Assembly (NCBI GenBank): GCA_934162655.1 | Contig: CAKPJL010000003.1 | Location: 1,714 to 65,713, forward strand | DNA: 64,000 nucleotides | Source: an uncultured Clostridia bacterium | Lineage (GTDB): Bacteria > Bacillota > Clostridia > TANB77 > CAG-465 | Direction of reading: 5' to 3' | Shown: positions 7,558 through 58,193 of the stretch, in pieces | Numbering within the stretch: the first letter of the stretch is position 1 | Layout: the number at the start of each line of letters is the position of its first letter | Program-made: the position numbers and the translations under genes | The notes under the pieces: generated by a model | What the model was told of the DNA's origin: nothing | Seen by the model: only the letters and a program-made list of their open reading frames with translations | Databases searched by the model: none

Positions 7558-7563
7558 TACATA

Positions 7564-9961: not shown

Positions 9962-9973
9962 ACATACCTCCCA

Positions 9974-27687: not shown

Positions 27688-28101
27688 CTATTTTTCCTTT
27701 ATTTCTATACCTACATCATTCATAATTTTAATAGTATCCTCACTTCTATCTTCGCCATTATAAGTTAGCTTGCCATTTTCAATTATTATTATTTTGTCAT
27801 AATCTTTTACCATACTTGGTATAAATTCTTTTACTTTATCCCAGTCTTCCACACTTTGTAAATCTTCATCACTTTGTGGATCATAATACATACCAAGAGA
27901 AATTGATTCAAATTGCTTATTATTTACATACGCATCAAAATCTGTTTTAAATGTCAACATATCATCTCTTAATACTACCTTTTTAGATTTATTTATAGTA
28001 TCTTGATCTTTCATGGTAAGTATTGCAGCACCAGAAAGTATTATTATAACAATAATTGTTATAACTAATATTATAAGTGATACACCATTTTTTTTAATCA
28101 T
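27688..28101 (-). CDS. Pilin-like protein with degenerate prepilin-type N-terminus
   Basis: 137 aa. MIKKNG|VSLIILVITIIVIIILSGAAIL mirrors the K-K-x-G|F-T-L-I-E-hydrophobic class III leader, but position +5 is Ile rather than Glu. A small globular C-terminal part follows. Confidence 0.5.
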   Translation of the reverse strand: MIKKNGVSLIILVITIIVIIILSGAAILTMKDQDTINKSKKVVLRDDMLTFKTDFDAYVNNKQFESISLGMYYDPQSDEDLQSVEDWDKVKEFIPSMVKDYDKIIIIENGKLTYNGEDRSEDTIKIMNDVGIEIKEK

Positions 28102-36672: not shown

Positions 36673-36788
36673 AACTTATCCACCTAATGATATTATATTT
36701 ATTAATAACTTTATTATTATACTTTTTATTAATAAAAACAAAAGTCGAAATAAATTTAATTATTTCAACTTTTTTATGCTATTATAAC

Positions 36789-36836
36789 AAAAAATGCAAC
36801 ACTACATAATAATTTTTATAATTTTGTAGTGTTACA
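36789..36836 (-). terminator. Terminator after the 944-aa gene
   Basis: TGTAGTGTT / AACACTACA stem, followed by TTTTTTG on the minus strand. Shares a ~30-nt identical block with the terminator at 39726..39781. Confidence 0.65.
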
Positions 36837-36857
36837 TCTATCTTTGATGATTAATTA

Positions 36858-39692
36858 TCAGTTATGTAAATATATACTATTAACCTCAACTGTAATAGTA
36901 CCCTTAACACTTGCATGAGAAGCAGAAAATAAATAAATATAATACTTCCCGTTAACCCCACTAATACTAAAAGTTTCTTTTCCCTCAAACACTTCACCAG
37001 TATCAAAAATTCTAGCTCGAATACCTCCTGGAGTATTATCAATTATTGATGCATTATAATCAACCGGCTTTTCATCTAATAGTTTAATCCAAAAAGCAGT
37101 ACCATAATCGTCGTTAGTAACATTATAAATTTTGTAATCTATATCCATGTATTTATAAAGTGATAAGTCAACTTTATTAGTAGTATAAAAATTACCATTT
37201 CCATATTTAGTAGTAGAATTATCACCAAATTGTAAACAGTTAGAAAGATAGTTATAAAAATGTCCGCCATAACTTGACCAAGAGTTATATATTTTCTCAG
37301 ATTTATCTGTATATATATGAGTACTCCATCCACCAGTTACATTTTTACATAAATCTCCCTTATTATATAAGTATATATCACTAACTTTCCAAATTGCATA
37401 TAAGGTTATAGTAGATCCATTAACATTTGTTAGATTTGAAACGCTTTGACTATTAGAATATGTCGTCCCCGTACCATCAGCATTTGTATTCCAACCGGTA
37501 AATGTATAACCTGTTTTTGAGTATCCATTCGCTGTTAGATTTTTTGCTACACCATATGTATGGATGCTACTTGCTGTACTTCCTGATGTTGCTCCATTTC
37601 CATTATACGATATCGTATATGTTATAGCTGATGCATTTGCAGTGTTTACTATATTGTAATTTGGCATTGTAAAGCTATATGTTTTTGTAGCATTTGGGAT
37701 AGTTCCTGTCCATGAACTCCATGTATATCCTGCATTTACTTGAGCGTCTATTACTACTGTACTTCCATATTCATATGTACCTGCTCCACTTACACTACTT
37801 ATTCCTGTGCCTTTATTTAGTGTAACTGTGTAAGAATTTCTTGTATAATACATATTTATTACAAGTGATCCATCACCTGATACTACTGCTTGACTTACTT
37901 GGATATTTGCTACTTGTGAACTAATATATGTAAAGCCTGGTATTTGTTTTACAAAGCTTGATACTTGTAGTATTTGGCCTGTTGTTCCTGTCTTATCTTC
38001 TGTGTTATAAAGCGAATATGTATTTGCTCCAACATTTTTTATATAATGATTTACTTTGTATTTCGTATTTGTACTTGCAATTGTATTTGCAGTATTTTCT
38101 ACATTGTAATCTGGCATTGCAAAACTATATGTTTTTGTAGCATTTGGGATAGTTCCTGTCCATGAACTCCATGTATATCCTGCATTTACTTGAGCGTCTA
38201 TTACTACTGTACTTCCATATTCATATGTACCTGCTCCACTTACACTACTTATTCCTGTACCTTTATTTAGCGTAACTGTGTAAGAGTTTCTTGTATAATA
38301 CATATTTATCACAAGTGAACCATCTGCTGATACTACTGCTTCTGCAACTTCAATTGTTGCTACTTTTGAGTTACTATATGTAAAGCCTGGTATCTGTTTT
38401 ACAAAACTTGATACTTGTAGTTTTTCTCCTGTTGTTCCTGTCTTATCTTCGGTGTTATAAAGCGAATATGTATTTGCTCCAATATTTTTTGTGTAATGAT
38501 TTACCCTATATTTTGTGTTTGTACTTGCAGACCATATAGCATATAGTGTTATACTTTCATCTTTGCTATATGTACTGCCTGGTATGTAACTTACTATATT
38601 TGATGTACTAGATGTTGACCAACCAACAAAGTCATATCCTATTTTTGTTGGTACATCAGATGTTAAAACTAAACTTTGTGCTTCATACTTTATCTGACTT
38701 TGTGGTGCATTATTTCCTCCATTTGCATCATATCTTACTTCAAATGGTCTTGGTAATGTTTTTACATTTAAAACAGTATTTTGCTCTGATTCATTTCCAA
38801 CATAATCAACTGCTTTTGCATAAATTACATATAAATCATTTGATTTTAAATTCTCTATTTTTCCTTCTTCTGCTTCATTATATATTTTTGTATAATTTAT
38901 TCCATCTGCACTATATTTATATCCTGCAAGTCCACATTCAAGGTCATTACTTCCACTTGCCTTTACACTGATTTTATTTATATCTACTACTATATCGCTT
39001 TGGTCTAAATTTGGTTTTGTTGGTGGTGTTTTATCAATTGTTGTTATATCTTTTGAATTTGAAGCTGCCTCGTCATCGTCTTGTTTATTATACAGTCTTG
39101 TAATTATAGAAGAGTTATTTTCAATTTCTATTTCTTGTGTGTAATCTACAAATTCCTCGTCGCCTATTTTATATTGCAAAATATATCCTTCTGGTATTTC
39201 TCCTAGATAACTTAGACTGGCTCCTATATTATATCTTGTCCATTCTATATTTCCTACTTTTACTGTTGGTCCTTTTGGTGTTAACAAAATATTTACAATA
39301 CCTTCTACTTCAACTGTATCATCTATCTTTATTTTTGCCTCTGTCGCCCATTTTCTTTCCTTGCTAGTTAGCATTTTTCCTCTTAAAGTAAGCATTCCTT
39401 CTGTTATGTATGAGTATTTTATATATTTACTTTTAACTAAATTGTAGCTATATTTTTTTATTTCATTAACATCAGTAATTTTTTTACTTATTATACTTTG
39501 ATCTTTTATAAAATCTTTCTGTATTGCTACCCTTATTTCTTCATCAAAGTTTTTTAAGTCGTTCTTGTATTTTGCCTCTCTTGAGCTTTCCACTACATCA
39601 CTATTGGTTAGACTTAAAATTACTATGCCTGAAAGTATTATTATTACTACTATTGTTACTATAAGTGTTATTAAACTTACACCTTTTTTCAT
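36858..39692 (-). CDS. Giant pilin-like surface protein with Listeria-Bacteroides (Flg_new-type) repeats
   Basis: 944 aa. N-terminus MKKG|VSLITLIVTIVVIIILSGIVIL (prepilin-like, Thr at +5). Repeats of the type RYDANGG..GYDFVGWSTS..ITLYAIW, YTVTLNKGTGISSVSGAGTYEYGS..AGYTWSSWTG and YNGNGATSG..GYTFTGWNTNADGTGT..TLYAIW. Confidence 0.7.
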   Translation of the reverse strand: MKKGVSLITLIVTIVVIIILSGIVILSLTNSDVVESSREAKYKNDLKNFDEEIRVAIQKDFIKDQSIISKKITDVNEIKKYSYNLVKSKYIKYSYITEGMLTLRGKMLTSKERKWATEAKIKIDDTVEVEGIVNILLTPKGPTVKVGNIEWTRYNIGASLSYLGEIPEGYILQYKIGDEEFVDYTQEIEIENNSSIITRLYNKQDDDEAASNSKDITTIDKTPPTKPNLDQSDIVVDINKISVKASGSNDLECGLAGYKYSADGINYTKIYNEAEEGKIENLKSNDLYVIYAKAVDYVGNESEQNTVLNVKTLPRPFEVRYDANGGNNAPQSQIKYEAQSLVLTSDVPTKIGYDFVGWSTSSTSNIVSYIPGSTYSKDESITLYAIWSASTNTKYRVNHYTKNIGANTYSLYNTEDKTGTTGEKLQVSSFVKQIPGFTYSNSKVATIEVAEAVVSADGSLVINMYYTRNSYTVTLNKGTGISSVSGAGTYEYGSTVVIDAQVNAGYTWSSWTGTIPNATKTYSFAMPDYNVENTANTIASTNTKYKVNHYIKNVGANTYSLYNTEDKTGTTGQILQVSSFVKQIPGFTYISSQVANIQVSQAVVSGDGSLVINMYYTRNSYTVTLNKGTGISSVSGAGTYEYGSTVVIDAQVNAGYTWSSWTGTIPNATKTYSFTMPNYNIVNTANASAITYTISYNGNGATSGSTASSIHTYGVAKNLTANGYSKTGYTFTGWNTNADGTGTTYSNSQSVSNLTNVNGSTITLYAIWKVSDIYLYNKGDLCKNVTGGWSTHIYTDKSEKIYNSWSSYGGHFYNYLSNCLQFGDNSTTKYGNGNFYTTNKVDLSLYKYMDIDYKIYNVTNDDYGTAFWIKLLDEKPVDYNASIIDNTPGGIRARIFDTGEVFEGKETFSISGVNGKYYIYLFSASHASVKGTITVEVNSIYLHN
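37626..38525 (-). repeat. Two tandem 450-bp (150-aa) near-identical coding repeats
   Basis: Residues 390-539 and 540-689 of the 944-aa protein align without gaps. DNA stretches of more than 100 nt are almost identical at an offset of exactly 450 nt (for example 37711.. versus 38161..). Confidence 0.9.
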
Positions 39693-39725
39693 ATGTTTCC
39701 TCCAAGTTCACCACCAGTATACACT

Positions 39726-39781
39726 AAAAAAAAAAAAATGCAACACTACATAATAATTTTTAAATTATTTTTAGTATTGCA
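39726..39781 (-). terminator. Second terminator after the 1751-aa gene, overlapping a candidate promoter of the 944-aa gene
   Basis: TGCAATACTA / TAGTGTTGCA stem followed by 13 T on the minus strand. TTGCAT, 16 nt, TATACT can be read across the T-run. Confidence 0.65.
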
Positions 39782-39832
39782 TTCTAAAATTACTATTCCC
39801 TAAAATACACTTTATATACTTTCTTATTATAT

Positions 39833-39883
39833 AAAAATAAAGACTGTTTAGCAAAGTATTTTTATGCTTTGCCAAAAGTCTTT
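39833..39883 (-). terminator. First terminator after the 1751-aa gene
   Basis: Long imperfect stem AAAGACTTTTGGCAAAGC / GCTTTGCTAAACAGTCTTT, followed by ATTTTTAT on the minus strand. Confidence 0.6.
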
Positions 39884-39910
39884 ATATAAATTATATTTCT
39901 ATAATTTTTA

Positions 39911-45114: not shown

Positions 45115-46446
45115 TTAATAGCCAAAAAGTTCTCTTCTTGTGGCTAAAAATTCCTCCATATACCATATCGGTACAAAGCCTGCAAATAAATCATTATCTG
45201 CTTTATATTTTTTAAATGTGTCATCACTTGGATCATAGAATATATATTCTGTATTTGTATATCCACAAAGAAGCATATACTTTGTAGAAGAAGAAAAATA
45301 AGTTTCTGAAGAATAACCTGATATTTTTGAAGTTGAGTCTTTATACATAACTTCAATTGTTTTTGGTTTATGATTTTCTTCAATAGCACATACTATAACA
45401 TTACCTTTCCTTATATGTTGCTTTACTCCTTCAAAATTATCATAATAGCCTAGAAAAGGATCTCCAACAACATTATTTATTTTATTAACCTCGCAATAAT
45501 CTACAAAAGTAGAAATTATTGTGTTATAAATACAGGGACTACCTAATATAAATTCCTTATGTGTCGGATCACCTATATACACCCCATTAATATAGGCATC
45601 TACATACCACTTTCCTTCCTTCCTATATGGTTCTCTTATAAATACATGCTCGAAGAGATCCTTTGGCATTACATCAATGCCATAATTTCTCATCATCATA
45701 GCAAGGCATACCATTGGTGTACCAGTAGGATATCCTACTTCCTCATTAGTGATCTTTTCGAAATCCACAATAAATTCACCATTTTTACCGTTCGTTTTAG
45801 CAGATTTAACAGTAGAATAATCGCTTTTGTATACCTTACCATTTATGACCTTTGCAGACTTTATCTTAAAATAGTATGTGGTAAAACCTTCAAGCTTTGA
45901 AACAGTGTAACTTTTCTTTGTTACATATCCAAGACTTTTATAGGTTCCATTCTTTGATGTAGACATATAAATATAGTATCTATCTGCACCATCAACTGCA
46001 TTCCAAGATAAATTAATCTTAGAGTCACTTACGGTTTTGGCTGTTACCTTTGGTGCTTTTAAATTTACCACAGTTTTTGTAACCATGGATGAATAAGCAG
46101 AACGCTTGGTAACTTTGCCCTTTTGGTTTATGGACACAGCCTTTACTTTGTAGTAGTATTTTCCATACTCTTTAACTTCTGTATCTTTATAATACAGCTT
46201 TTCAGTCTTTGCATAGAGCTTTAAACTTCCTTTTGAAGTATCACGCCGATACACATAGTACATATCTGCACCGTCAACTTCACTCCATGAAAGCTTTATC
46301 GCCGGAGTGGTAAGAAGACTTATTGATACTTTAGGAGTGCCAAGCTCATCGTTTGTCTTTGCCGCTGCTGTATCAATAGCAAAGAGCGACATCATGGTAA
46401 CTATTACCATGACAAGGGATAAATACCGTAAAAATCTTTTTTTCAT
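45115..46446 (-). CDS. Secreted protein: two fibronectin type III-like domains plus C-terminal C39-like (papain-fold) peptidase-like domain
   Basis: 443 aa. Signal peptide ..AIDTAAA|KT. Two repeats (IKLSWSEVDGADMYYVYRR..YYYKVKAV and INLSWNAVDGADRYYIYMS..YYFKIKSA). C-terminal GYPTGTPMVCLAMMMRNYGI ... YMLLCGYTNTEYIFYDPSD. Confidence 0.55.
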   Translation of the reverse strand: MKKRFLRYLSLVMVIVTMMSLFAIDTAAAKTNDELGTPKVSISLLTTPAIKLSWSEVDGADMYYVYRRDTSKGSLKLYAKTEKLYYKDTEVKEYGKYYYKVKAVSINQKGKVTKRSAYSSMVTKTVVNLKAPKVTAKTVSDSKINLSWNAVDGADRYYIYMSTSKNGTYKSLGYVTKKSYTVSKLEGFTTYYFKIKSAKVINGKVYKSDYSTVKSAKTNGKNGEFIVDFEKITNEEVGYPTGTPMVCLAMMMRNYGIDVMPKDLFEHVFIREPYRKEGKWYVDAYINGVYIGDPTHKEFILGSPCIYNTIISTFVDYCEVNKINNVVGDPFLGYYDNFEGVKQHIRKGNVIVCAIEENHKPKTIEVMYKDSTSKISGYSSETYFSSSTKYMLLCGYTNTEYIFYDPSDDTFKKYKADNDLFAGFVPIWYMEEFLATRRELFGY

Positions 46447-46520
46447 GTTTATTCCTCCTTATGAAATAAATCATTAAGTGAATTATTAATTCCACTTTTT
46501 TCCAATTACTTACATGGTAT

Positions 46521-46549
46521 ATTATATCATATTTTGTATAAAAAGTCAA
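46521..46549 (-). promoter_or_regulatory. Consensus sigma-A promoter for 45115..46446
   Basis: TTGACT, 17 nt, TATAAT on the minus strand. Confidence 0.6.
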
Positions 46550-46573
46550 TATTTTATGTAAACATAATATAAA

Positions 46574-46609
46574 GTAAAATAAAAGATAGAAATTTTAACT
46601 TCTATCTTT
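46574..46609 (-). terminator. Terminator closing the Tad-like operon
   Basis: AAAGATAGAA / TTCTATCTTT stem overlapping the stop of 46609..48012, followed by TTTATTTT on the minus strand. Confidence 0.65.
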
Positions 46610-48012
46610 TATTCAATTATAAGTTCTTCATCATTTTTTTGATTTAATGTTATTCCATCTATTTTTTCGTCTATCTTTTGTAAATAGATATTTCCTTCCC
46701 AAACATACATAATAACACTTGATACATTTGGCTTATCAATTACAGTATCTATATAAAACTCATACTTATTTTTGTCATATACAATTACATTCTCATTATT
46801 TTCACTGTCTAAATACAATATATTTTCTTTTGTATCTGAACTTATAATTTCAAATGATAATTTTGTTCTAATTCTATAATTTTCTCCATCATAATACATT
46901 ATTGGTAATTGTGAAACTCCGCTTCCTTTTATTTTTATTTTATTGTCTTTTACATGCTTTACATATTTATCCAAAATTGTAGATTGTGTTGAAAATAGGC
47001 CATATTCTTCTAGTTCTTCTTGCATTTTGGCTTTGTCTATTGTTTCATAATCTATGTTCAAAATTATACTATAATATCTATCAACGATATTAGAAATAGT
47101 AGAATATACACTTCTTTCTTTTACAAATAAGTCAATTGGGGAAATAAATTCTTTTTCATCTTTTACTATTAAGTCTTTTTCGTATGCCTCTTTTGCTACA
47201 TCAAACAAAATATAAGAATACTTATCACTATTAGAAGGTATTTTATCTTCACTTATATTGAATTTTTTTCCTTTTGGTATTAATAGATTATATTGTTTAA
47301 TAATATCACAAGTAAGCTTATTTATTTCTCCTTTATGCATTTTTTTATTTGGATTTATTTTCCCGTTACTATTTTCCAATACTTTTGTTGCAACAAGATC
47401 TGACAATGCATATAATTGCTCAGGAGTAATTTGTGAAATATCACTATAATTTGGATAGACACTGGTATCTAAATTTGCACCTACAAGTTTTACTCTAGCT
47501 TTTGAAAAATACTCTATAAATTCAATAAATGTAATCTTATTTCCTTCATTTTTTTTATTTATTTGTTCTTCTGATATAATGCCATTTTCTACTGCATATT
47601 CAACCCATAATTGATTATCATATTCTTTTTCTATACTGATGAAATTATCTAAATCTACAAGATTTGTAATAGAAGATACAATAATTTTTATTGCTTCTGA
47701 CTTGGTAACACTTTCAAAACTAGTCGATTTAGAATTATTATACATCTGTGATAAGCCATATTTATCCATTTGTTTTGCATAATCATTATATTTAGAATAT
47801 TTTATTACTTTTGCCAAAAATATTATACCTATTATTAGAGCTATGGCAATAATTGCTGATAATACAATTAGTATTAATCTCTTATTTAATAATTTTTTAT
47901 TTTTACCCTCTTTTTTTGGGTTATTTTCTTTTTTATCTTTATTTTCTTTTTTTGCTACACTTTCCTGCTTAACCTTCATATATGCAGGAACTATTTTTTC
48001 ACTATCTGCCAT
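46609..48012 (-). CDS. Hypothetical bitopic membrane protein, last gene of the Tad-like operon
   Basis: 467 aa. Lys-rich cytoplasmic N-tail, TM LILIVLSAIIAIALIIGIIFLA, large extracytoplasmic part. RBS TAGGAGGT overlaps the previous stop. Confidence 0.55.
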   Translation of the reverse strand: MADSEKIVPAYMKVKQESVAKKENKDKKENNPKKEGKNKKLLNKRLILIVLSAIIAIALIIGIIFLAKVIKYSKYNDYAKQMDKYGLSQMYNNSKSTSFESVTKSEAIKIIVSSITNLVDLDNFISIEKEYDNQLWVEYAVENGIISEEQINKKNEGNKITFIEFIEYFSKARVKLVGANLDTSVYPNYSDISQITPEQLYALSDLVATKVLENSNGKINPNKKMHKGEINKLTCDIIKQYNLLIPKGKKFNISEDKIPSNSDKYSYILFDVAKEAYEKDLIVKDEKEFISPIDLFVKERSVYSTISNIVDRYYSIILNIDYETIDKAKMQEELEEYGLFSTQSTILDKYVKHVKDNKIKIKGSGVSQLPIMYYDGENYRIRTKLSFEIISSDTKENILYLDSENNENVIVYDKNKYEFYIDTVIDKPNVSSVIMYVWEGNIYLQKIDEKIDGITLNQKNDEELIIE

Positions 48013-48021
48013 ACGTACCTC

Positions 48022-49299
48022 CTAAGGCATACACACCGGACATGGATAAAATCCTATTACATTTCTTTGTTCACCACTTTTTGGTTTATATACACCTACA
48101 ACTGATGTAGCTTGCTGCTTTGTAGTAACATATATTGGTGTTACATCTTCATGTATAGAGTTAATATACTCTGGACATTTTACATTAGAGTGATATAAAT
48201 TTTTGGAAAATTTAGATCCAACTAAATTTCCTTTTGCATCTTTTTTAGGAATACTTAAATAATATCTATTAACAAGTTCTAGTCTTGAAACACTATATGC
48301 TTGTGTATCTAAGTATTTATTACCAACAGAAATACCTTGAACAAAAGCAAATATTCCTACTTCATCTATATAGTCTCCCATTTTTGCTTCTTCAATTTGT
48401 GGAAAAACAAAATCATAAGTTATACCAGAATTTGATGCATAAAAATTATTGGAATTTACGGAATAAGCTAGTTCATCAGTAATTGTTTTTATAATTACTT
48501 GGTCTTTTACAGCTTTTAGGTGGTTTACTATTTTTTCTAACATCTTTAAGTTTTCGCTATCTTCTTCACTACTGCCTTTATATAAATCTTTATTATTTAT
48601 TATATCATTTGCAGTGCTTACATTTCCTTCTACTAATGTTCCTTTTCTTGTATCAGCTAAATAAAAAGACCATTTTTTTAGTTCACTACTTCCTCTTTTT
48701 CCCACTACATATCCCCTATGAGTAACATAGTCATCCATAGTAAATTCTATTGTGTGGCATGATAATATCTTATCTTTATTTCCACTATATTCTTCTGCAT
48801 TTACTATCTTATAAAGTTTATCTTCATCTTTTTCATTTATAATGTAATAGGTATAAGTATAATATTTTTTAGGTTTTATAGCATGTTCAATGACAGTTGT
48901 ATTATCCCTGCTATACTCTTCTACCGATGAAATATATACACCATTGTAATCTATAATAGCAAGTGCTGGAACAAATAATTGAAGATAACTCTGAGCACTA
49001 ACATTTCCTTTTACACCAAAATTATTATATAATGCTTCAAAAAATGTACTTGCAGCAACATTAGCATTAACACTAATTTTTTTGTCTTCTTCTCCAGAAT
49101 ACCCATAGTCTATATCTTTATCTTCATTTTCAACTTCTTTCATCATGGCTGTTGCATCTTCTATTGCTGAGTTTATAAGCTGTTCATAATACATTTCTTG
49201 TTCTTCTGCCTTTATCGTATATGAGACATTTATATATACAACTATAATTATAGGCAAAGTTATTGCTATAAATATCATAGCAAAGTCTGTTATTTTCAA
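48022..49299 (-). CDS. Hypothetical N-terminally anchored protein (425 aa), Tad-like operon
   Basis: TTG start behind GAGGTGGA. MKITDFAMIFIAITLPIIIVVYINV hydrophobic N-terminus. C-terminal Cys motifs VKCPEY...CPVCMP. Confidence 0.55.
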   Translation of the reverse strand: MKITDFAMIFIAITLPIIIVVYINVSYTIKAEEQEMYYEQLINSAIEDATAMMKEVENEDKDIDYGYSGEEDKKISVNANVAASTFFEALYNNFGVKGNVSAQSYLQLFVPALAIIDYNGVYISSVEEYSRDNTTVIEHAIKPKKYYTYTYYIINEKDEDKLYKIVNAEEYSGNKDKILSCHTIEFTMDDYVTHRGYVVGKRGSSELKKWSFYLADTRKGTLVEGNVSTANDIINNKDLYKGSSEEDSENLKMLEKIVNHLKAVKDQVIIKTITDELAYSVNSNNFYASNSGITYDFVFPQIEEAKMGDYIDEVGIFAFVQGISVGNKYLDTQAYSVSRLELVNRYYLSIPKKDAKGNLVGSKFSKNLYHSNVKCPEYINSIHEDVTPIYVTTKQQATSVVGVYKPKSGEQRNVIGFYPCPVCMP

Positions 49300-49336
49300 T
49301 TATTCCACCTCACTTTCTTTACTCTAAACACATATA

Positions 49337-49906
49337 CTAAATAGCATAATATCTAGCATCAATTACCTTCCATGCTTCATTTTTAACAAATCCTCCATAA
49401 TTTACAACAATTCTATCTTTTGTAGAAGTTGAAATTATTGAATTAAATAATGCCCCTGCAAGAGTTGTATTAGAATTTTTTAACTTTACATAGAATTGGT
49501 CTCCTTGGTTTAATGTGTACATACCATTTTTTACTTTTTTTACATCAAGCGTTGCGGATTTTGTATCTTGCCCAATAATATCAAAAATATCATCTGTATA
49601 ATCAATTCTATATTGAGTAATATGAAGCGAACTGTTCTCTGGGTCTGGTGTTATTACTTGTCTATGAGCTTCTATTTGAATATCATACAAATTATTTGTA
49701 TTAGAAAGAGCTTGTACAAAATCGTTGTACATTTCTTCATCTAAATATCCATTATTTAAAACCTTTTCCACAAATGTTGTTGTCTTTCGAAGTGCAAGAT
49801 TATATGACATATCATCTTGTCTTTCAAAAAAATTATATACAGGAAACAATACTACAAGTGTAACAAATACTATCATTAATATTATAATACTTAAATTATC
49901 TTTCAT
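49337..49906 (-). CDS. Hypothetical N-terminally anchored protein, paralog of 50825..51592
   Basis: 189 aa. IIILMIVFVTLVVLFPVYNFFERQDDMSYNLALRKTTTFVEKVLNNGYLDEEMYNDFV aligns residue-for-residue with the 255-aa paralog. Shared C-terminal GD.F.V.L.N.N.T.A..LF......S....R...NYGG..KNE. Confidence 0.6.
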   Translation of the reverse strand: MKDNLSIIILMIVFVTLVVLFPVYNFFERQDDMSYNLALRKTTTFVEKVLNNGYLDEEMYNDFVQALSNTNNLYDIQIEAHRQVITPDPENSSLHITQYRIDYTDDIFDIIGQDTKSATLDVKKVKNGMYTLNQGDQFYVKLKNSNTTLAGALFNSIISTSTKDRIVVNYGGFVKNEAWKVIDARYYAI

Positions 49907-49930
49907 TTATAGAAATTGCCTCCTTTTTTA

Positions 49931-50395
49931 TTACACATTTATTTTTGCAAGTTCATCTTTGTTTGCTTTTTTTATTAGAATATCTATTTGATACTTTCCA
50001 CTTCCAGAACTAGTAACTTTTTGGTACTTCAAATAATACTTTGAAGCTGGATCTACCAAATTTACAAGTTCATAATATGTAGTTGTATTTGGTATATTAA
50101 ATGATTTTCCATTTTCATCTTGTAAATTTATATTATAGTTATAAACTAAATTTGAATCTTTATCTAAAATATAATTATAATAATATGATATAAGTTGATT
50201 GCCTGTAACTACTCTATATGATGTAGTTGGCACATTCTCAATCAAAGCTTTATCTTCTATTTTCTTTCCGTAATTATATGATGTTTCAGCATAGCTATTA
50301 ACCATATAAAACATTGTTATTGTAGTACTTAGTGCTATTATAAATACAAATATATATGCTGCCATATACATTGCTTCATTAGCATTTTCGCTCAT
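49931..50395 (-). CDS. Pilin-like protein 4 (minor), Tad-like operon
   Basis: 154 aa with RBS GGAGAGGA. MSENANEAMYMAAYIFVFIIALSTTITMFYMV: a short polar leader directly followed by a ~22-aa hydrophobic helix. Confidence 0.5.
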   Translation of the reverse strand: MSENANEAMYMAAYIFVFIIALSTTITMFYMVNSYAETSYNYGKKIEDKALIENVPTTSYRVVTGNQLISYYYNYILDKDSNLVYNYNINLQDENGKSFNIPNTTTYYELVNLVDPASKYYLKYQKVTSSGSGKYQIDILIKKANKDELAKINV

Positions 50396-50410
50396 AACTA
50401 TCCTCTCCTA

Positions 50411-50803
50411 TTATTTTATATCTGTAAAAAATATATTTGCACCATCATCTATTCTTTGACAAGTAACACTAAACTTTCTTTTATAAAAATCAAATTTAGT
50501 CTTGTCGTCTTTTTCCTTTGATAAAATAAACTCTTCTTTTATGATGTTATTATTATAATATACATTTACAATTGCATCATTTTTATATTTATTGTAAGTA
50601 TTAATAAGCTCAAGTCCTGTCATTTCAGTATTATCATACATATCAAAACTAGTAAGTCCTTGCCTTATTGATATATCTGTCTTATCAACCGTTTTGTATA
50701 TATCTCTAAAATAACCAATGACCATAATTATAGAGGAAGTTATAGCAATTGTTACAAGTAAAGATACTGATATCATTATAGCTTTATTTGAAATTTCTGA
50801 CAT
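50411..50803 (-). CDS. Pilin-like protein 3 (minor), Tad-like operon
   Basis: 130 aa with RBS AAAGGAGGA. MSEISNKAIMISVSLLVTIAITSSIIMVIGYF. Confidence 0.5.
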   Translation of the reverse strand: MSEISNKAIMISVSLLVTIAITSSIIMVIGYFRDIYKTVDKTDISIRQGLTSFDMYDNTEMTGLELINTYNKYKNDAIVNVYYNNNIIKEEFILSKEKDDKTKFDFYKRKFSVTCQRIDDGANIFFTDIK

Positions 50804-50824
50804 ATATTTCCTCCTTTAATTATA

Positions 50825-51592
50825 CTAAAAAGCCTTATATTCTTCGTTTTTAATTGTTGCACCATAATTTATATAAACGCGTGGGACCTGAGAAGTTGAA
50901 CTAGAAAAAGTTAGTGCATCAAATAATATTGAAGCAAATGTAATATTTGTGTTTCTTATTATAACTCCAAATTCATCCCCAACAGTCATCGTATATATTG
51001 GTTTTCCATCTTTATCTTTATAATTTAATGGTTTATATGGCATATCTTTTTTATTTATAGCCATATATTCTTTTTCAGTCATTTCGAAATAACTCTTTTG
51101 ATTTACCTGTGCTAAGTAATTTAAAATTTGTTCTTGACCATATATTATATTTGATAATTTATATGTAAGCTCAAATGAATAATTTTTTGTGTCGTATGTA
51201 ATAGTCTTACCATCAAATGTTTTAGCAATTATTCCATTTTTCTCTAAATCTTTGCTTGTGTATTGTGACTCATATATGCTATATTCTAATGTATCAACTA
51301 ATACATTTTTATTATCATACACATTTATAACCGGATTATATGTTTTTGAAATATGCTGAAGCTCAATATCATATGAGTTATTAGTCGCGGCAAGTTCTGA
51401 CACAAATTCATCATACATTTCTTGTGTTAAATAACCCTTTGATTTAACTTGATTAACAAAAGTAGAAGTTATTTTAAGTGCAAGTGTATATGATACATCA
51501 TCTCTTTTTTCAAATGTCATATAAATCGGTAGTATAAAAAATACTAGTGTTGCAAAGATAATAGCAAATATTCTTTGAACAACCTCTTCCAT
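50825..51592 (-). CDS. Hypothetical N-terminally anchored protein, paralog of 49337..49906
   Basis: 255 aa with RBS TAGGAGGA. IFAIIFATLVFFILPIYMTFEKRDDVSYTLALKITSTFVNQVKSKGYLTQEMYDEFV. Confidence 0.6.
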   Translation of the reverse strand: MEEVVQRIFAIIFATLVFFILPIYMTFEKRDDVSYTLALKITSTFVNQVKSKGYLTQEMYDEFVSELAATNNSYDIELQHISKTYNPVINVYDNKNVLVDTLEYSIYESQYTSKDLEKNGIIAKTFDGKTITYDTKNYSFELTYKLSNIIYGQEQILNYLAQVNQKSYFEMTEKEYMAINKKDMPYKPLNYKDKDGKPIYTMTVGDEFGVIIRNTNITFASILFDALTFSSSTSQVPRVYINYGATIKNEEYKAF

Positions 51593-51607
51593 AAATTCCT
51601 CCTAATT

Positions 51608-51976
51608 TTAATCAATTGCTGTAATTTTTATATCTGTTACTGAATCATCTACAACTATTTTAAATTTTTCATTTGGTTTTACAATACTTTTAAATTCATA
51701 AGGTGTATAAGTAGTCTTTCCAACATTTATAGTAATTTTTACTGCACTATTTTGTTCAAAATAGTTTATTAAGTTTATAACATCTGTACCATAAGCATTT
51801 TCTTTTAAAAATATATCTCTTATATAAGAATCATAATTTTCATATAGCTTACTTTGTGAGTTGAGTGAACTTACTCCCTCTTTTGCGGTATTATAATATG
51901 TTAAAACAAGGGAAATAGTAACAATTGCTACTAAAACACTAACTCCAATTGTAATTGCTCTTATAGCATTATCCAT
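51608..51976 (-). CDS. Pilin-like protein 2 (minor), Tad-like operon
   Basis: ORF 51608..51988. The GTG at 51988 lies in the AGGTGGA RBS. ATG 51976 gives MDNAIRAITIGVSVLVAIVTISLVL, parallel to the MDNAQKAIMIGVGLF.. start of the major candidate. Confidence 0.55.
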   Translation of the reverse strand: MDNAIRAITIGVSVLVAIVTISLVLTYYNTAKEGVSSLNSQSKLYENYDSYIRDIFLKENAYGTDVINLINYFEQNSAVKITINVGKTTYTPYEFKSIVKPNEKFKIVVDDSVTDIKITAID

Positions 51977-52012
51977 AAATGTTTCCACCTACCTTTATTT
52001 TGTATATACTTA

Positions 52013-52119
52013 AAAAGAAGTATTTTTTATAAATACTCTATTTTAAATACATACTTCTTTTGTACTTATTTTTTAGTACAAAAGGTATATAACTATATTT
52101 TAGTATAATTATATACCTT
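52013..52119 (-). terminator. Cluster of three hairpins downstream of the major pilin-like gene (attenuator/terminator)
   Basis: 11-bp stem AAGGTATATAA/TTATATACCTT (52082..52119), GTACT..AGTAC (52062..52079), and 9-bp stem AAGAAGTAT/ATACTTCTT (52013..52060) followed by TTT. This is the only gap over 60 nt inside the operon. Confidence 0.5.
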
Positions 52120-52128
52120 AAAAATTAA

Positions 52129-52593
52129 TTATTTAATTCCTTGCTTTTTGAATGAAATACCTACTACTGCATCATTTATTTTTATTAAACTTGCATCATA
52201 CTTTGCAGTTGTAACTATATAATAGCTCATGTCAGAAGTAGATGTTAATTTTCCAACTGCTGGCACATCACTATTAACACTAGTAGATTTTCCGTCAGAA
52301 ATTAATCCACCAAGATTTACTGTTTTACCATTTACATTTGTTAGTTCAATCGCCATTTTAGAGTCACCATGATACTTTTTAACTGAAGCAAGCACTTGTG
52401 AGCCAGTCATAACAGTACCATCATATTCTTGTGTTAATTGCTTTTGTAATTGTGCTGACATAGCAGAAAGTTCACCTGTTGCATTATTTGCAAGTTCTTG
52501 TCCCATACCAGTAACAACCATTACAATTGCTATAATTATGATTGTTATGAAAAGTCCAACACCAATCATAATCGCTTTTTGTGCATTATCCAT
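52129..52593 (-). CDS. Major pilin-like protein candidate, Tad-like operon
   Basis: 154 aa with strong RBS AAGGAGGAAAAAATA. MDNAQKAIMIGVGLFITIIIIAIVMVVTG, then a Ser/Thr/Gly-rich globular part. First structural gene after the platform gene, flanked by hairpins, and visibly less AT-rich than its neighbours. Confidence 0.55.
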   Translation of the reverse strand: MDNAQKAIMIGVGLFITIIIIAIVMVVTGMGQELANNATGELSAMSAQLQKQLTQEYDGTVMTGSQVLASVKKYHGDSKMAIELTNVNGKTVNLGGLISDGKSTSVNSDVPAVGKLTSTSDMSYYIVTTAKYDASLIKINDAVVGISFKKQGIK

Positions 52594-52653
52594 TATTTTT
52601 TCCTCCTTATTTTTTATATATTAAACACAAATATATTGTGTCTAAAACTTTTA

Positions 52654-54705
52654 TTATAGTGACATAGCACTAAAATATGAAATCATTTGCATTACACTTA
52701 CTATTAGAAGTGGAGCTACAAGATATCCACCAATCAATAATATTAATGGCATAAAGCCTAAAACTTTACCATATGTAACCTTTTTTTGAATAAGTCTTTG
52801 ATTTCCTTCTTTTCTTCTTTCATAGTAAAATCCTCTCTCTGTTTCTAGTTCATCAAACGCATCACGAACTGGAATACGCTCAACTGCTGATTGAAGTTGT
52901 TCTACTATTCTTTGGAAATCTTTATATGGTACAGATTCTTTTAATTCTTCTAGTGCTTCATATGCTCCAGCCTCATAATTATTTAGAGCTGTTGCAATAG
53001 GTTCTTTAAATGCATATGAAAATCTACATAACCATTCAAGTATTGTTTGAACATCAATTCTATCAATATACATAAGCATAAGTATTATTGACTGGAATTG
53101 CATAATTTCATTTTCTTTTTCCATCTCTCTAATCTTATTTCTTATAACAAGAACAATAGATGGAATATAATATGCTATTACGCCAATTACTATTGAAATT
53201 AATACTTGCCAATATTTAACGTAAGAATTTTTAACCTTTTGTATTTTATTATACACTCTATCTACTTCATCTTGATCAACTTGTCCAGTTGCAGAGTCAG
53301 TAAATCTAAGCTCCAAATCTTCACGTGTTACATTTTTATTTTTATATTCATCGATATATGTTTTATCTCTTTCATTTAAAGCTTTAGCAGCCCTTTCTTG
53401 TTCTGCTGACAGCTTACCAAACGATAAGAATTCATCGCTTATTGCTGTATAGACAGAATTAAAATCAATGTATTGTATATTAAACATAAGTATCATAGAA
53501 AGTACAAAACCAAGGAACGCTGCCACAAGCTTATTTACATATAACCATTCAATTGTAAGATATGCATTTGTATTTTTAATAAGTTCTGTATCTTTTCTAT
53601 ATTTTCTTGTATGCTCTTTTGGTTTAAATGCATCTACTAGCATCTTACCAAATTGAGTTCTATAAACTTTATCTTGCCATCTCACACTTGATACTCTATC
53701 AAATTTTATTTCTTCCGAATCTTCTTTAATTATACGAAGCATTAAATAAGAAACAAATATTGATATAATTATTAAGGATTGCATTACAAATCCTATACTA
53801 CTATTGTAAAAATTAGCAAGAGACGGGAAATTTGACTCTGCCCATGATTGCAATGGCTTAATTGCTACAAGTGGCACAACTGCTATTATTGTCAAACTTC
53901 TAAACATGTAATTTATCTTATCACGCTTTAATATTTCAAGATATATATCACTTAAAATATTATTTAAGTTTCTAAGGTATACGGATGTACCATCAACTTT
54001 TCTATCCCCTAGTTCTAGTGTTAAGTATGATACACCTGCAAATAATTTTAGAAATCTATTTGGGGCTGTATCATAATATTTTTCAAGTTCAGCCTCTGGA
54101 TTTTCAGACATCATTGCTTCTTTTATTCTTTTTAATTGAGGAACAATTTCTTTTTCGCCTAAATCATCCATTGCCGCATCAAAAGCTTCTTCAATCATAC
54201 CATGTTCATGGAATGCATGTCTTATGGAAGTGAATGCTTCTGGTAGCTGTCTTAATATCTTTAAAGATACTGAATTTATATTTAAATCTATAATTTTTTC
54301 TGCTACAACCAAAATACCAACTAAACATATAAGTGACATATATAGATCATTAACTAAGTTAACAAGTGTAAATGAAGCTACAAATATGAAAAATAGCATA
54401 ATCATCATAAGTTTTCCTGTATTTTTTCTTATTTCATATTCTGTATAATCATTTGCCATTTCCATTTTTAGTCTAGTTTTTTTAGTATAGTATTTTATTA
54501 TTGGCATTTTAACAAATACCAAATAAGCCGATTGATAAATTCTATCTAGAGTATCTTTTGATAGTTTTTTATCTTTTACTTTTAATTGATCCTTCTCATA
54601 TAGTGTTTTATTTTTAGAATAGTTTTTCTTAGTTCTAAAATAAAATATAAGTGTTGCTGAAAGGATCAAAGCAGCAAATACTACTAATATTATTATAAAT
54701 ACCAT
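52654..54705 (-). CDS. Fused TadB-TadC-like platform protein (two T2SS-F-type modules)
   Basis: 683 aa polytopic protein with two cytoplasmic helical modules. These are LRQLPEAFTSIRHAFHEHGMIEEAFDAAMDDLGEKEIVPQLKRI.. and MQFQSIILMLMYIDRIDVQTILEWLCRFSYAFKEPIATALNNYEAGAYEALEELK.. Each is followed by TM helices. Position directly after the ATPase gene. Confidence 0.6.
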   Translation of the reverse strand: MVFIIILVVFAALILSATLIFYFRTKKNYSKNKTLYEKDQLKVKDKKLSKDTLDRIYQSAYLVFVKMPIIKYYTKKTRLKMEMANDYTEYEIRKNTGKLMMIMLFFIFVASFTLVNLVNDLYMSLICLVGILVVAEKIIDLNINSVSLKILRQLPEAFTSIRHAFHEHGMIEEAFDAAMDDLGEKEIVPQLKRIKEAMMSENPEAELEKYYDTAPNRFLKLFAGVSYLTLELGDRKVDGTSVYLRNLNNILSDIYLEILKRDKINYMFRSLTIIAVVPLVAIKPLQSWAESNFPSLANFYNSSIGFVMQSLIIISIFVSYLMLRIIKEDSEEIKFDRVSSVRWQDKVYRTQFGKMLVDAFKPKEHTRKYRKDTELIKNTNAYLTIEWLYVNKLVAAFLGFVLSMILMFNIQYIDFNSVYTAISDEFLSFGKLSAEQERAAKALNERDKTYIDEYKNKNVTREDLELRFTDSATGQVDQDEVDRVYNKIQKVKNSYVKYWQVLISIVIGVIAYYIPSIVLVIRNKIREMEKENEIMQFQSIILMLMYIDRIDVQTILEWLCRFSYAFKEPIATALNNYEAGAYEALEELKESVPYKDFQRIVEQLQSAVERIPVRDAFDELETERGFYYERRKEGNQRLIQKKVTYGKVLGFMPLILLIGGYLVAPLLIVSVMQMISYFSAMSL

Positions 54706-54714
54706 AAAACACTA

Positions 54715-56607
54715 TCACCCCCAAGCTGTATCAACAAAGTTATCAAATGCTCTCATGTCTTCTGGTGACATATTCTCACGCATTGCTTTAATATTTGCCT
54801 CAGATATTGGATGTGTGAATACATATTCACCATCACGCCATTCAATTATGTTATGATAAGTATAATTGTTATTTTGTGTCATATGTTTAAAGTATTCAAC
54901 AGAATTGTCCATAAATTTATCTAACTTTTGCTCTATTGTTTTTTGTTCTCTATAATCATTGTTATATTCAAATTTCTGTTCTATTGGAACACATTCAGTT
55001 ATTCTTTCAATGTAACGGGTACCATCAACACCTCTTTTTAGATGTATATCGAAGTTTATAACTTGTACAACCTGTACTTCTGCAACATTTTCAGAATTAA
55101 ACATTCCAATTTTTAATAGTGAGTTTCTAAGTGCAGTTATAAGGTTAGGGAAAGTTTTAGCATGGTGTGTAAAAAGTGTGAATTTAGACGCAACCTGTGC
55201 CATCTGAATCATCCAAGCAGCAACCGGATCAGTTGCAACCTCTCCTAGGATATTTACACCACCATCTGTCTTTTTTTGTACATCTAGACCCATTTGTCCA
55301 GTTATTGTTTCAGTTTCACGAAGTGATAGTATATTGTGATTTGGATATATTTTTCTTAAATGTAATTCAAATGCTGTTTCTTGCACACGAATTGTAATTG
55401 TTGGATATAAGTATTTCATTATAGCCATAAGAAGTGTTGTCTTACCACATCCCTGTTCACCAGTAATTGCTGTAACACGAGCACCAGTTATTAAATATTT
55501 TAATAATTCTATTACTTTTTCTTTTCCTTTATGTACTAATAATTGTTCGGCAGATATTAATGTTGGTGGAGCAAACTTTCTTACAAAGAATGCCCAAGAT
55601 TCTGCAAAGTTTGGTCTTAATACAACTACACGCGAACCATCTTTCATCTCATTGATTTTAAAACCAACAGACTCAGAAAGTTGTCCTGGATTATTATATT
55701 TATAAATATTTTGACAGACTCTTTTAAGCTCTGCTTCGCTACCAAATGATAAGAAAGATAAGTATGTAGCTTTACCCTTGTAAAATATCCATACAGAGTC
55801 GTATGACATAGGCATCTTTTTACCATTCATCTGTTCTAAATAATCTTCCATTCCTGTTACTTGATCCAAGAATGAAGGAGGAATACCAGATACACCACCA
55901 GATACTCCATCAATATTCATATCACGAATATCATCTACAACACTATAACCTTTATACCCTTGATATACACGTTGAACAATAATTTCTAGTTTATCATCAA
56001 ATGTTAACATATCAGGTGATATTTCTTTATCAAATATATCATTAATTTCCTCTGCTGTTATTACATAAGAAGAAACCTCCGGATCAAATTCATATTTTGG
56101 AACATCAAGATTATATTTAGTTATAAGTTGTGTAAGTGCTTCAGCCTTATATTCTTTTTTGTAAAAATGAAGTAATATTTCAAACTTATCTTGTGGGGTT
56201 AGTGCCTCTGTATCATCAAAAGGTATTGCATAATTTGCATTAATCCCATTTACTCCATAATTATTTTTAAGTAAGTCAAACATCAAAGTTTTAACATACT
56301 TTTTATCGCTCTTATCTGCATAACCAGCACCTTTTAATGCTTTTTTTAATGCATATTTTACATTTCTTCTTCTTTCAAATTCTTCTTCTGAAAGTGCTAA
56401 ATCGTACAAATTCATACGAGTAATTTCATCAAATTGTTTCTTTATAAATTCTTGCATTTTTTGTATGCTATACTTATCTCTTTCACGAGCCACAATCACA
56501 TTATCTGTTTCTTTTACTGTTGAGCCTTTAATTCTATAAAAGAAGTATCCAACAACAAAAGCAAGTAAAACAACAATAAGCACAATGTTAAGAACAAATG
56601 CAACCAT
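54715..56607 (-). CDS. CpaF/TadA-like secretion ATPase with N-terminal transmembrane anchor
   Basis: 630 aa. MVAFVLNIVLIVVLLAFVVGYFFY TM helix. DIRDMNIDGVSG, KDGSRVVVLRPNFAESWAFFVRKF, Walker A ITGEQGCGKTTLLMAI, IRVQETAFEL, ILGEVATDPVA, THHAKT. Confidence 0.75.
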   Translation of the reverse strand: MVAFVLNIVLIVVLLAFVVGYFFYRIKGSTVKETDNVIVARERDKYSIQKMQEFIKKQFDEITRMNLYDLALSEEEFERRRNVKYALKKALKGAGYADKSDKKYVKTLMFDLLKNNYGVNGINANYAIPFDDTEALTPQDKFEILLHFYKKEYKAEALTQLITKYNLDVPKYEFDPEVSSYVITAEEINDIFDKEISPDMLTFDDKLEIIVQRVYQGYKGYSVVDDIRDMNIDGVSGGVSGIPPSFLDQVTGMEDYLEQMNGKKMPMSYDSVWIFYKGKATYLSFLSFGSEAELKRVCQNIYKYNNPGQLSESVGFKINEMKDGSRVVVLRPNFAESWAFFVRKFAPPTLISAEQLLVHKGKEKVIELLKYLITGARVTAITGEQGCGKTTLLMAIMKYLYPTITIRVQETAFELHLRKIYPNHNILSLRETETITGQMGLDVQKKTDGGVNILGEVATDPVAAWMIQMAQVASKFTLFTHHAKTFPNLITALRNSLLKIGMFNSENVAEVQVVQVINFDIHLKRGVDGTRYIERITECVPIEQKFEYNNDYREQKTIEQKLDKFMDNSVEYFKHMTQNNNYTYHNIIEWRDGEYVFTHPISEANIKAMRENMSPEDMRAFDNFVDTAWG

Positions 56608-56633
56608 TTTTTCACCCTCTTTTTTTTAAAATT

Positions 56634-57446
56634 CTAACTTTCTTTAATCTTAGTAATATCTAGTATCCTTTGCACAATTTCACTTGTAGCAACTATAAGT
56701 TTTCCATTGTAATCATTTTTATCAGCATTTAAGTTCTTATAGAAGAAGTCTATAATATCTCCGTCATTGCATGCATCTGAAAAAATTGCATTATGTGGAA
56801 TAGTATATATTGGCTCTTTTATCTTAAATCTTGATGCAATATTAAATGCAGTGTATTTAGATTTATCATCATAGTCTCCAAGTACATAAATTTTTTGTTT
56901 ATCTTTTAGTGTTTCATCACTGTCTATTTTCTTAAAGAAATCTGTTAGTTTTACTATATCTTGATTTAAAACACAAACTACAACATCTGAGTCGGCTAAA
57001 ACATTATCAATGTCATCTTTTTTACCTTTTGGCAAATCGAGTAAAACCAAATCATATAACTCATCTGCTTTTCTAATTAAATATGTTAAACTCTGCATTA
57101 TTTGATTATACATTTCTATATCATTTGAATTAATTCCATAAAGTATATCAAGTCTATTTTTTAATACAGGTTTTGCATAGTTTTGTATAAAATCAGGTGT
57201 TAACTTATTTGAAGTTATAAGTCTTGAAAGTGCTGATATTCCTATATTAGAGCTTTCAAAAGTTCCACTTGTAACAAGTTCATCATAAGGTGTATATGCA
57301 GATTCCACTTTTCTTGAATTAAAGTTTGTTTGAAGTAAAATGCTTGTTACTTTATGTGTTATTCCCATAAGAGTGGATACGGCTAAAATGGCGTGTGTAT
57401 TTCCTGCCATTGCTTTATCCATACTCCAAAATGTTACTTTTGCCAT
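56634..57446 (-). CDS. ParA/MinD-fold TadZ-like protein lacking a P-loop (copy 2)
   Basis: 270 aa. The Walker A position reads FWSMDKAMAGNTHAILAVSTL. Walker B-like YDLVLLDLPKG is retained. Confidence 0.45.
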   Translation of the reverse strand: MAKVTFWSMDKAMAGNTHAILAVSTLMGITHKVTSILLQTNFNSRKVESAYTPYDELVTSGTFESSNIGISALSRLITSNKLTPDFIQNYAKPVLKNRLDILYGINSNDIEMYNQIMQSLTYLIRKADELYDLVLLDLPKGKKDDIDNVLADSDVVVCVLNQDIVKLTDFFKKIDSDETLKDKQKIYVLGDYDDKSKYTAFNIASRFKIKEPIYTIPHNAIFSDACNDGDIIDFFYKNLNADKNDYNGKLIVATSEIVQRILDITKIKES

Positions 57447-57447
57447 C

Positions 57448-58161: not shown

Positions 58162-58193
58162 TTTTTCCTCCTAATAACTTAAATACTATTTTG

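Follow-up and report, generated by a model that had tools for sequence, protein, structure and literature searches.

A 944-aa protein of an uncultured Clostridia bacterium that probably is a modular type IV pilin-type adhesin without Glu5

Type IV pilins with grafted adhesin modules are experimentally established in Streptococcus sanguinis, where PilB carries a vWA module and PilC a lectin module (Raynaud et al. 2021, PMC8179133; PMC9934059). Such modular pilins, which are thought to explain the gain of many functions by simple pili, were reported to be widespread on the basis of the canonical pilin signature, and the published census required IPR012902 (PMC8179133). This census used the canonical GFxxxE signature, by which the present family is missed entirely. 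Here we describe a gene located in a 64,000-nt stretch of DNA from an uncultured Clostridia bacterium (assembly GCA_934162655.1, contig CAKPJL010000003.1, positions 1,714 to 65,713), which as a whole is referred to as the window. The gene encodes a 944-aa protein, which is not matched by IPR012902 and which rather probably is a modular type IV pilin-type adhesin. It belongs to a family of more than 1,400 representative clusters, despite the missing canonical signature, and genomes of ~1.3 Mb can contain 41 or more family members. In the following, coordinates are positions of the window and residue numbers are those of the 944-aa protein.

The 944-aa protein shares with PilB and PilC of S. sanguinis the combination of a small N-terminal pilin module with bulky adhesin modules that are not pilus-specific, the monoderm host with a PilB/PilT/PilC-type machine and the presumed exposure at the tip. 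However, in the streptococcal pilins the class III signal is canonical, including Glu at position +5 of the mature protein (Glu5), and is recognised by IPR012902, whereas our protein has Thr at this position and escapes both PF07963 and the NCBIfam pilin models. Further, one grafted module in S. sanguinis compares to approximately nine serial domains here, two copies compare to approximately 20 to more than 40 family members per genome, and the gene described here lies outside the pilus locus. Type II secretion (GspK) and type IVb pili (TcpB and CofB) also have large minor subunits with additional domains, for which a position at the filament tip is assumed; sequence similarity of the family to GspK, TcpB or CofB was not found. 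The Sulfolobus bindosome has as its substrates sugar-binding proteins that carry a class III signal peptide (PMC3047682). These too are large, functional non-pilin proteins with a prepilin-type signal without Glu5, and they depend on type IV filament-like assembly for their display; the bindosome differs in being archaeal, in using the Bas machinery and in displaying solute-binding proteins rather than adhesin repeats. Finally, with two Flg_new and two Flg_new_2 repeats the protein resembles the Listeria-Bacteroides/InlB B-repeat proteins (PF09479, PF18998), of which hundreds of homologues exist in gut Firmicutes. Most of them start with an ordinary Sec signal peptide, in contrast to our protein and a minority of homologues (P0028, P0081, P0073, P0031-33) with the pilin-like module; one homologue (P0080) has a canonical GFTLVE pilin signal. 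Thus, modular pilins are a known kind of protein, and new here are the Glu5-less class III-like signal missed by curated models, the presence of at least 41 family copies in some relatives with genomes of 1.1-1.7 Mb (approximately 20 copies in the genome studied here) and the use of Flg_new/InlB-B repeats as grafted modules.

The open reading frame (ORF) had been noted in a first-pass annotation of the window, and it is indeed intact, with an ATG start codon and a ribosome-binding site; its strand had to be corrected to the minus strand. The gene and the encoded protein (36858..39692) have the following parts, for which AlphaFold2 confidence is given as predicted local distance difference test (pLDDT):

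39699..39703, minus strand: ribosome-binding site GGAGG, 7 nt 5' of the ATG, read from the sequence
39681..39692, minus strand: leader peptide MKKG, residues 1-4, with Gly at -1, a putative prepilin-peptidase site, read from the sequence
39318..39680, minus strand: pilin-like module, residues 5-125, with hydrophobic alpha1N, long helix and small head (AlphaFold2 pLDDT 85-90)
38769..39296, minus strand: two fn3/Ig-like beta-sandwiches, a putative stalk, residues 133-308 (AlphaFold2 pLDDT >90; Foldseek)
38538..38744, minus strand: Flg_new (Listeria-Bacteroides repeat) copy 1, residues 317-385 (Pfam PF09479, E 6e-22 for the protein; TIGR02543)
37629..38528, minus strand: tandem duplication of a 150-aa unit, residues 389-538 and 539-688 (DNA repeat, Pfam)
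37395..37619, minus strand: Flg_new copy 2, residues ~692-766 (Pfam scan of a fragment)
36861..37382, minus strand: orphan C-terminal domain, residues 771-944 (174 aa), rich in Tyr, Ser, Asn and Gly, a putative distal ligand-binding module

The N-terminus corresponds to what had been quoted in the first-pass annotation: MKKG is directly followed by 24 uncharged hydrophobic residues (5-28, VSLITLIVTIVVIIILSGIVILSL) with Thr at +5. A full HMMER search with residues 1-310 against 1.84 billion representatives resulted in 1,464 matches, which resolve two units. While the fn3 pair (residues ~145-305) recurs across many unrelated architectures, the unit of residues ~2-125 is always N-terminal in the matches and exists also as stand-alone proteins of 121-135 aa. 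This Gly-ended N-terminal module, comprising the first 125 residues, defines a large family, whose cluster members carry only the name "hypothetical protein". In 91 family N-termini, the leaders have a length of 4-23 aa, Gly precedes the hydrophobic tract and Ser or Thr occupies +2 in every case, and +1 is Ile or Val in 86. Position +5 is mostly Val (49), followed by Ala (17), Thr (11) and Ile (10), and is Glu only once. The Gly at -1 is invariant also in two family alignments, A2 with 31 sequences and A3 with 17 sequences restricted to the module, and Ser/Thr at +2, Leu at +3 and Leu at +6 are conserved in both alignments and in the 91 N-termini.

In the genome studied here, the motif consists of Met and a short Lys/Asn-rich leader ending with Gly, followed by [IV]-S-L-I-x-L-[IV]-[IV]-T-I-V-V, with no Glu5. 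It was found on 14 ORFs with a strict regular expression and on approximately 19-20 with a looser reading, and the encoded proteins have between 129 and more than 960 aa. The motif is not a chance finding, because it is located each time directly after Met and a basic leader, and because eight congeneric genomes of equal composition contained zero matches. The distal modules of the paralogues are BspA-type leucine-rich repeats, a ConA-like lectin domain, GLUG, Flg_new or nothing recognisable, and most family members are large and multidomain. A second family member in the window (27688-28101, minus strand, 137 aa) starts with MIKKNG followed by VSLIILVITIIV and is solitary between ruvX (yqgF-like) and the gene of a small acidic protein.

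Family members are part of a complete type IV pilus locus on another contig of the assembly (C7). There, a PilM/PilN fusion and PilO-like genes are followed by a 160-aa family member (MKAKNG followed by ISLIVLVITIVV...), the A24_N gene, a pilin-like gene, PilB, PilT, PilC and, after pilC, a 728-aa family member carrying a GLUG motif. The 160-aa protein occupies the position of the major pilin. Four other species keep this order, with one or two small family members (147-212 aa) at the pilin position.

The distribution of the family follows that of PilB. Among 31 relatives, the family was found in 19, which are exactly the 19 with a full PilB orthologue (at least 47% identity), and in none of the 12 others; eight congeners have only a PilB stub of ~190 aa next to secA and zero family members. 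Of 101 evenly sampled genomes of the order, 82 contain the family, and each of these 82 has a PilB orthologue. Grouped by PilB status, it is found in 82 of 84 genomes with the orthologue and in 0 of 17 without it, the latter having stubs (5), nothing (4) or only a PilB-like protein at 36-44% identity (8); altogether, 19 of the 101 genomes are without the family. The family is absent from one subclade within the genus, from a single species of genus g14, from the genera g2 and g21 and from the whole family f3, and this scatter implies at least three to five separate events. Since related genomes are not independent, we offer no statistic on the co-occurrence. In the sampled genomes, the family was found only where the orthologous type IV pilus machine was found. 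Together with the synteny this suggests, at the level of the family only, dependence on a type IV filament machine.

The module itself was compared with pilins at the levels of sequence and predicted structure. As in pilins, a short hydrophilic leader ending with Gly at -1 precedes a hydrophobic stretch (at least the ~21 residues typical of pilins) which starts a helix of ~50 residues. When searched against PDB sequences, the A2 profile was dominated by BspA-type leucine-rich repeat columns from the longer members, and the search was redone with the module-only alignment A3. This profile ranked type IV pilins first, with matches to the Geobacter-type PilA-N (9egp, E 3.1e-4), Thermus PilA4 (6xxd, 2.1e-3) and S. 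sanguinis PilE1 (8pfb, 2.9e-3), matches which are of marginal strength and cover alpha1 only; pilins and pseudopilins were found in 13 of the first 20 rows. The alignments to these pilins are in register with the cleavage site, with Gly-Ile-Ser-Leu-Ile of the family on Gly-Phe-Thr-Leu-Ile, and in 9egp Gly is placed on the Gly of KKG/FTLIEL. The NCBIfam matches of the module, all far under the cut-offs, were to ComGF, GspG, GspH and prepilin-peptidase-dependent pilin. Modelling of the N-terminal helix with the first domain, which the first-pass annotation had recommended, was performed by AlphaFold2 with family alignments for residues 1-310 (pLDDT 90) and 1-135 (pLDDT 85). It predicts a single continuous helix at residues 7-61 (~55 residues) with a kink at 31, and a small head up to residue 124 containing short helices, a hairpin (94-104), a helix (110-118), a strand (122-124) and only a 3-stranded sheet; in the "lollipop" fold of pilins, alpha1 packs on a globular head with a beta-meander. 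The order of domains, in which the module 1-125 is followed by two fn3, two Flg_new and two Flg_new_2 domains, corresponds to a modular pilin in the sense of Raynaud et al. 2021.

Several observations weigh against this interpretation. The residue at +5 is Thr in our protein, and Glu is nearly absent at this position family-wide. Glu5 is often missing in archaea and in GspK-type tip subunits. In bacterial pilins it is almost invariable; cleavage does not depend on it, but the assembly of homopolymers does (PMC4471445). GspK is indeed known to lack it (PMC8179133), but in GspK-type systems only the tip subunit is without Glu5 and the major subunit has it, whereas in the family described here it is missing from the candidate major pilin as well as from almost every other member, and the sole Glu5 pilin-like segment of the locus is fused to the N-terminal domain of PilD. 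No Pfam pilin signature was detected on our protein or on 17 family members, and in a six-frame scan of the genome with N_methyl (PF07963), the matches, four of five of which are on family members, reached 11.8-18.2 bits at a cut-off of 21.2. Foldseek with the 135-aa model gave no match at E<=1e-3. With VIA-align the same model reached Z 3.6-5.1, and the Z values of full-length pilins (3.6-4.4; TcpA 4.4 over 116 aa, CofA 4.4 over 112 aa, PilA4 4.1 over 99 aa) are within the noise of long helices; alignments exceeding 90 residues were obtained only with full-length pilins from cryo-electron microscopy filaments. Regarding the co-occurrence, it rests on a handful of loss events among related, non-independent genomes, and two genomes have PilB with no family member detected, one with a split PilB (G058) and one with an intact PilB and a completeness of 88% (G087). 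Moreover, the gene sits outside the pilus locus, the PilD of this locus consists of the N-terminal domain only, and pilC is split by a single frameshift (L019 on C7, 5695-7033, minus strand) into ORFs of 285 and 171 aa. This frameshift lies outside a homopolymer, both halves are 58-70% identical to the intact PilC of a congener, and it reflects either an error of the assembly or an inactivation that happened very recently. Because Glu5 is missing, N_methyl stays below the cut-off and the fold searches are not significant, we treat the protein, despite the support by profiles and synteny, as a non-canonical, Glu5-less pilin-type protein and not as a proven pilin.

In the C7 locus, the N-terminal domain of PilD (A24_N_bact), with four Cys, is fused in frame to the Glu5-bearing pilin-like segment (..KKG/VYIAELIVAF.., L019 11271-12104, minus strand), which is the only Glu5-type pilin signal seen in this locus, and no peptidase domain was found in the fusion. 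The fusion is kept in four species of the genus (L019; L040, 5196-6020; L041, 8834-9676; L043, 4624-5412), while in a locus from another family (L042) the PilD N-terminal domain and the pilin-like segment are separate genes. The only Peptidase_A24 domain of the genome belongs to a 250-aa enzyme with a GFGDVK motif and without the N-terminal domain, which is encoded on contig C5 (7533-8285, L025), far from both filament loci. Its identity is 53-64% in congeners with the pilus versus 30-39% in congeners that lost it; by contrast, the ATPase of the Tad-like operon described below is ~80% identical in both groups.

Distal to the module, the segment previously described as Ig-like turned out to be two fn3-like beta-sandwiches according to AlphaFold2 and to Foldseek, which with this part of the 310-aa model found fn3 tandems (best E 3.5e-7, others weaker). 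The Flg_new and InlB-B-type repeats recognised in the first reading were recovered by a domain hidden Markov model scan as two Flg_new and two Flg_new_2 copies (Pfam; TIGR02543 in NCBIfam), with scores exceeding the curated cut-offs (PF09479 78 bits vs 27, PF18998 62.4 vs 23.6, TIGR02543 48.3 vs 20.95). Each of the duplicated 150-aa units consists of a "KYxVNHY...YYTRNSYTV" beta domain and one Flg_new_2 (InlB B-repeat) copy, located at residues ~471-536 and ~621-686 (E 3.9e-17). At the DNA level the duplication has a period of 450 nt, 300 nt of which are 90% identical. A database protein of 794 aa (P0001) equals our protein minus exactly one unit, which points either to a copy-number allele or to an assembly collapse. 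For the C-terminal 174 aa, we found no Pfam match, no homologue except for P0001 at the sensitivity of a word index and no paralogue in the genome; look-alikes in the ESM Atlas (CBM27 and galactose-binding-like clusters, scores 0.87-0.91) are leads only. The C-terminus (...TVEVNSIYLHN) has no LPXTG motif and no hydrophobic tail, which excludes the protein from the sortase-anchored class. Since the genome contains four to five sortase genes, we abandoned the idea that in this reduced genome a pilin anchor substitutes for sortase anchoring.

Taken together, the proposal that a pilin N-terminus carries adhesin modules is supported by the synteny in the pilus locus, the strict co-occurrence with PilB and the in-register matches to solved pilins, while the part of the original proposal that named the Tad-like operon as partner is not supported. 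If the protein is a modular pilin-type adhesin, the precursor would enter the membrane, and the single A24 prepilin peptidase (encoded on C5) would cleave it behind Gly4. With alpha1 as its membrane anchor, the mature protein would then be handled by the PilB/PilC/PilMNO machine of the C7 locus. Most likely it would be a low-abundance subunit that caps or primes a filament of the 160-aa Glu5-less pilin; alternatively, it could be placed at the base as a short pseudopilus. Its ~800 residues of serial beta-domains (two fn3, Flg_new/InlB-B) could form a stalk of tens of nanometres, which would keep the orphan C-terminal domain at a distance from the cell for binding of a ligand, possibly a glycan. 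The approximately 20 paralogues with differing distal modules may represent a repertoire of interchangeable pilus-borne adhesins.

Other explanations have to be considered. It is conceivable, though in our opinion unlikely, that the prepilin signal is genuine and PilB and PilC are needed, but that a short pseudopilus or a raft is built instead of a long pilus, in a bindosome-like or type II secretion-like display. The machine would then place dozens of large proteins with pilin anchors in or through the wall; the precedent is the Sulfolobus bindosome, for whose sugar-binding proteins such a positioning has been proposed (PMC3047682, PMC4471445). Indeed, the copy number in this genome and even more in some relatives exceeds the expectation for classical minor pilins, and most members are large and multidomain. 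Glu5, needed for homopolymerisation in classical pili (PMC4471445), is absent, and a chain of about nine beta-domains could be long enough to cross a Gram-positive wall when anchored in the membrane. On the other hand stand the retraction ATPase PilT, the PilM/N/O-like proteins and the small pilins of 147-212 aa in the locus, which are the equipment of a real dynamic pilus, and the sequence data do not separate a filament from no filament. It is still more improbable that the N-terminus is an ordinary uncleaved signal anchor of type II, inserted by Sec/YidC and independent of type IV filaments, with a pilin likeness that is only compositional. Such an anchor would be in line with the lack of Glu5, with curated pilin models below their cut-offs and with the non-significant fold searches of the module, and hydrophobic helices do yield spurious profile matches, as exemplified by FliL and DPP6 among the weak rows. 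But a plain anchor needs neither an invariant Gly after a short basic leader nor conserved Ser+2, Leu+3 and Leu+6, and it would not account for the presence of small members in pilus operons. Nor would it lead to the joint disappearance of 10 to at least 40 copies with PilB in several lineages in which the Tad-like operon and the sporulation genes remain.

The first-pass annotation had suggested that the protein may be a substrate or tip adhesin of the adjoining Tad-like operon (45115-59291, minus strand), which we now consider hardly credible. This operon encodes a SAF/CpaB-like protein, two ParA/MipZ-like proteins, a 630-aa ATPase with a weak T2SSE match only, a 683-aa membrane protein without a Pfam match, six small membrane-anchored proteins (e.g. 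MDNAQKAIMIGVGLF) and proteins of 425, 467, 443 (with fn3) and 1751 aa. Its neighbourhood speaks for a partnership, since our gene is located immediately downstream on the same strand, at a distance of 218 nt from the last gene of the operon and not of 7 kb as stated before, and the ATPase gene is present in every family-bearing genome. However, this gene was detected in 29 of the 31 relatives and its product is 79-85% identical in all 18 congeners, eight of which have no family member; in the co-occurrence check that had been suggested, this presence without the family argues against the partnership. The N-termini of the six small proteins differ from that of the family and have no Gly-1 motif, a strong terminator follows the 1751-aa gene, and in five congeneric species the slot between this giant gene and spoIID contains unrelated small genes or nothing. 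In addition, a 40-nt direct repeat brackets our gene, as it would bracket an inserted unit. The protein does not resemble Flp pilins either. The latter have ~50-80 aa and the Flp motif (Gly, then xxxxEY) and are encoded in the tad locus, while our protein has 944 aa and no EY at +5/+6 and is encoded outside the transcription unit of the upstream operon. Sequence comparison therefore supports a correction of the partner: instead of the adjoining Tad-like operon, it would be the pilus locus on the other contig.

The surroundings of the gene in the window, which has a G+C content of ~27% and nearly all genes on the minus strand, contain the following features:

39837..39885, minus strand: hairpin terminator of the upstream 1751-aa gene (-19.2 kcal/mol, z -6.0)
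39722..39785, minus strand: upstream hairpin with a run of 13 T, terminator-like (-17.2 kcal/mol, z -4.1), part of repeat D3
36787..36838, minus strand: downstream hairpin with a T-run, the terminator of the gene (-18.6 kcal/mol, z -4.4)

The terminator claimed in the first reading is thus genuine: folding detected AT-rich hairpins followed by T-runs (z -4.1 to -6.0), which a consensus terminator scan missed. The promoter-like boxes claimed at the same time carry no weight, because a sigma-70 promoter scan found 22 of them versus 24.2 expected in shuffles. The near-identical hairpins at 39722-39785 and 36787-36838 are the two copies of the 40-nt direct repeat, an exact 24-mer of which occurs twice in the window (0 expected). 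The upstream copy lies ~40 nt before the start codon, between the best promoter-like box and this codon, and could act as an attenuator and not just as a terminator. A similar AT-rich hairpin with a T-run is also located upstream of a family member on contig C36 (~3493).

Downstream of the gene, spoIID, an M23 peptidase gene, spoIIID and mbl are located; therefore, the host (assembly of 1.14 Mb in 56 contigs, 96.6% complete) is a spore-forming Clostridia-type organism. No orthologue of the 944-aa protein was found among the sampled relatives. The best foreign matches have ~35-40% identity across roughly the first 120 residues, and the closest sequences are paralogues on other contigs of the same genome (C29, 64%; C15, 41% identity). 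Since, in addition, the slot is variable in congeners, the gene behaves as a species-specific cassette. As it is one cassette among many, the pattern at the level of the family is more interesting than the single gene.

A wider interpretation can be put forward as a tentative one, which we rather doubt: this order of small-genome gut Clostridia may run a type IV pilus with a Glu5-less major pilin and dozens of Glu5-less modular subunits as a general display platform. The class III signal would be archaeal-like and missed by current pilin signatures, and each genome of 1.1-1.7 Mb would encode a fast-turnover repertoire of adhesins and lectins with pilin anchors, numbering approximately 20 to more than 40 (~3% of genes), the 944-aa protein being one species-specific cassette of it. 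In this interpretation, the Glu5-bearing pilin segment fused to the PilD N-terminal domain might serve as the single charge-bearing initiator. If the type IV pilus machine indeed processes family members and brings them to the surface, a bacterial type IV filament system can do without Glu5, and a large part of the "hypothetical" surface proteins of uncultured gut Clostridia could be annotated as pilus-dependent adhesins. The pilus would then be a candidate for the main colonisation organelle of these reduced-genome organisms.

Some further observations concern the neighbouring and other secretion-related genes. Several Flg_new proteins of other organisms (P0052, P0076, P0088 and P0101) start like the 425-aa protein of the Tad-like operon (48022-49299; MKLQ..IIFIIIIIPI..), so that a separate class of large repeat proteins with such anchors may belong to the Tad-like system. 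A second CpaF/VirB11-like ATPase is encoded on C5 (L026, corresponding to C5:20001-36000, at ~5650-10700), together with TadB-like, ParA-like and VirB4-like genes and with an integrase nearby; this cluster probably is a conjugative element. Finally, by eye from the translation, a 401-aa protein with a polytopic membrane domain and a SipW-type signal peptidase motif (61569-62774, minus strand) adjoins a TasA/camelysin-like protein of 181 aa (62956-63501, minus strand).

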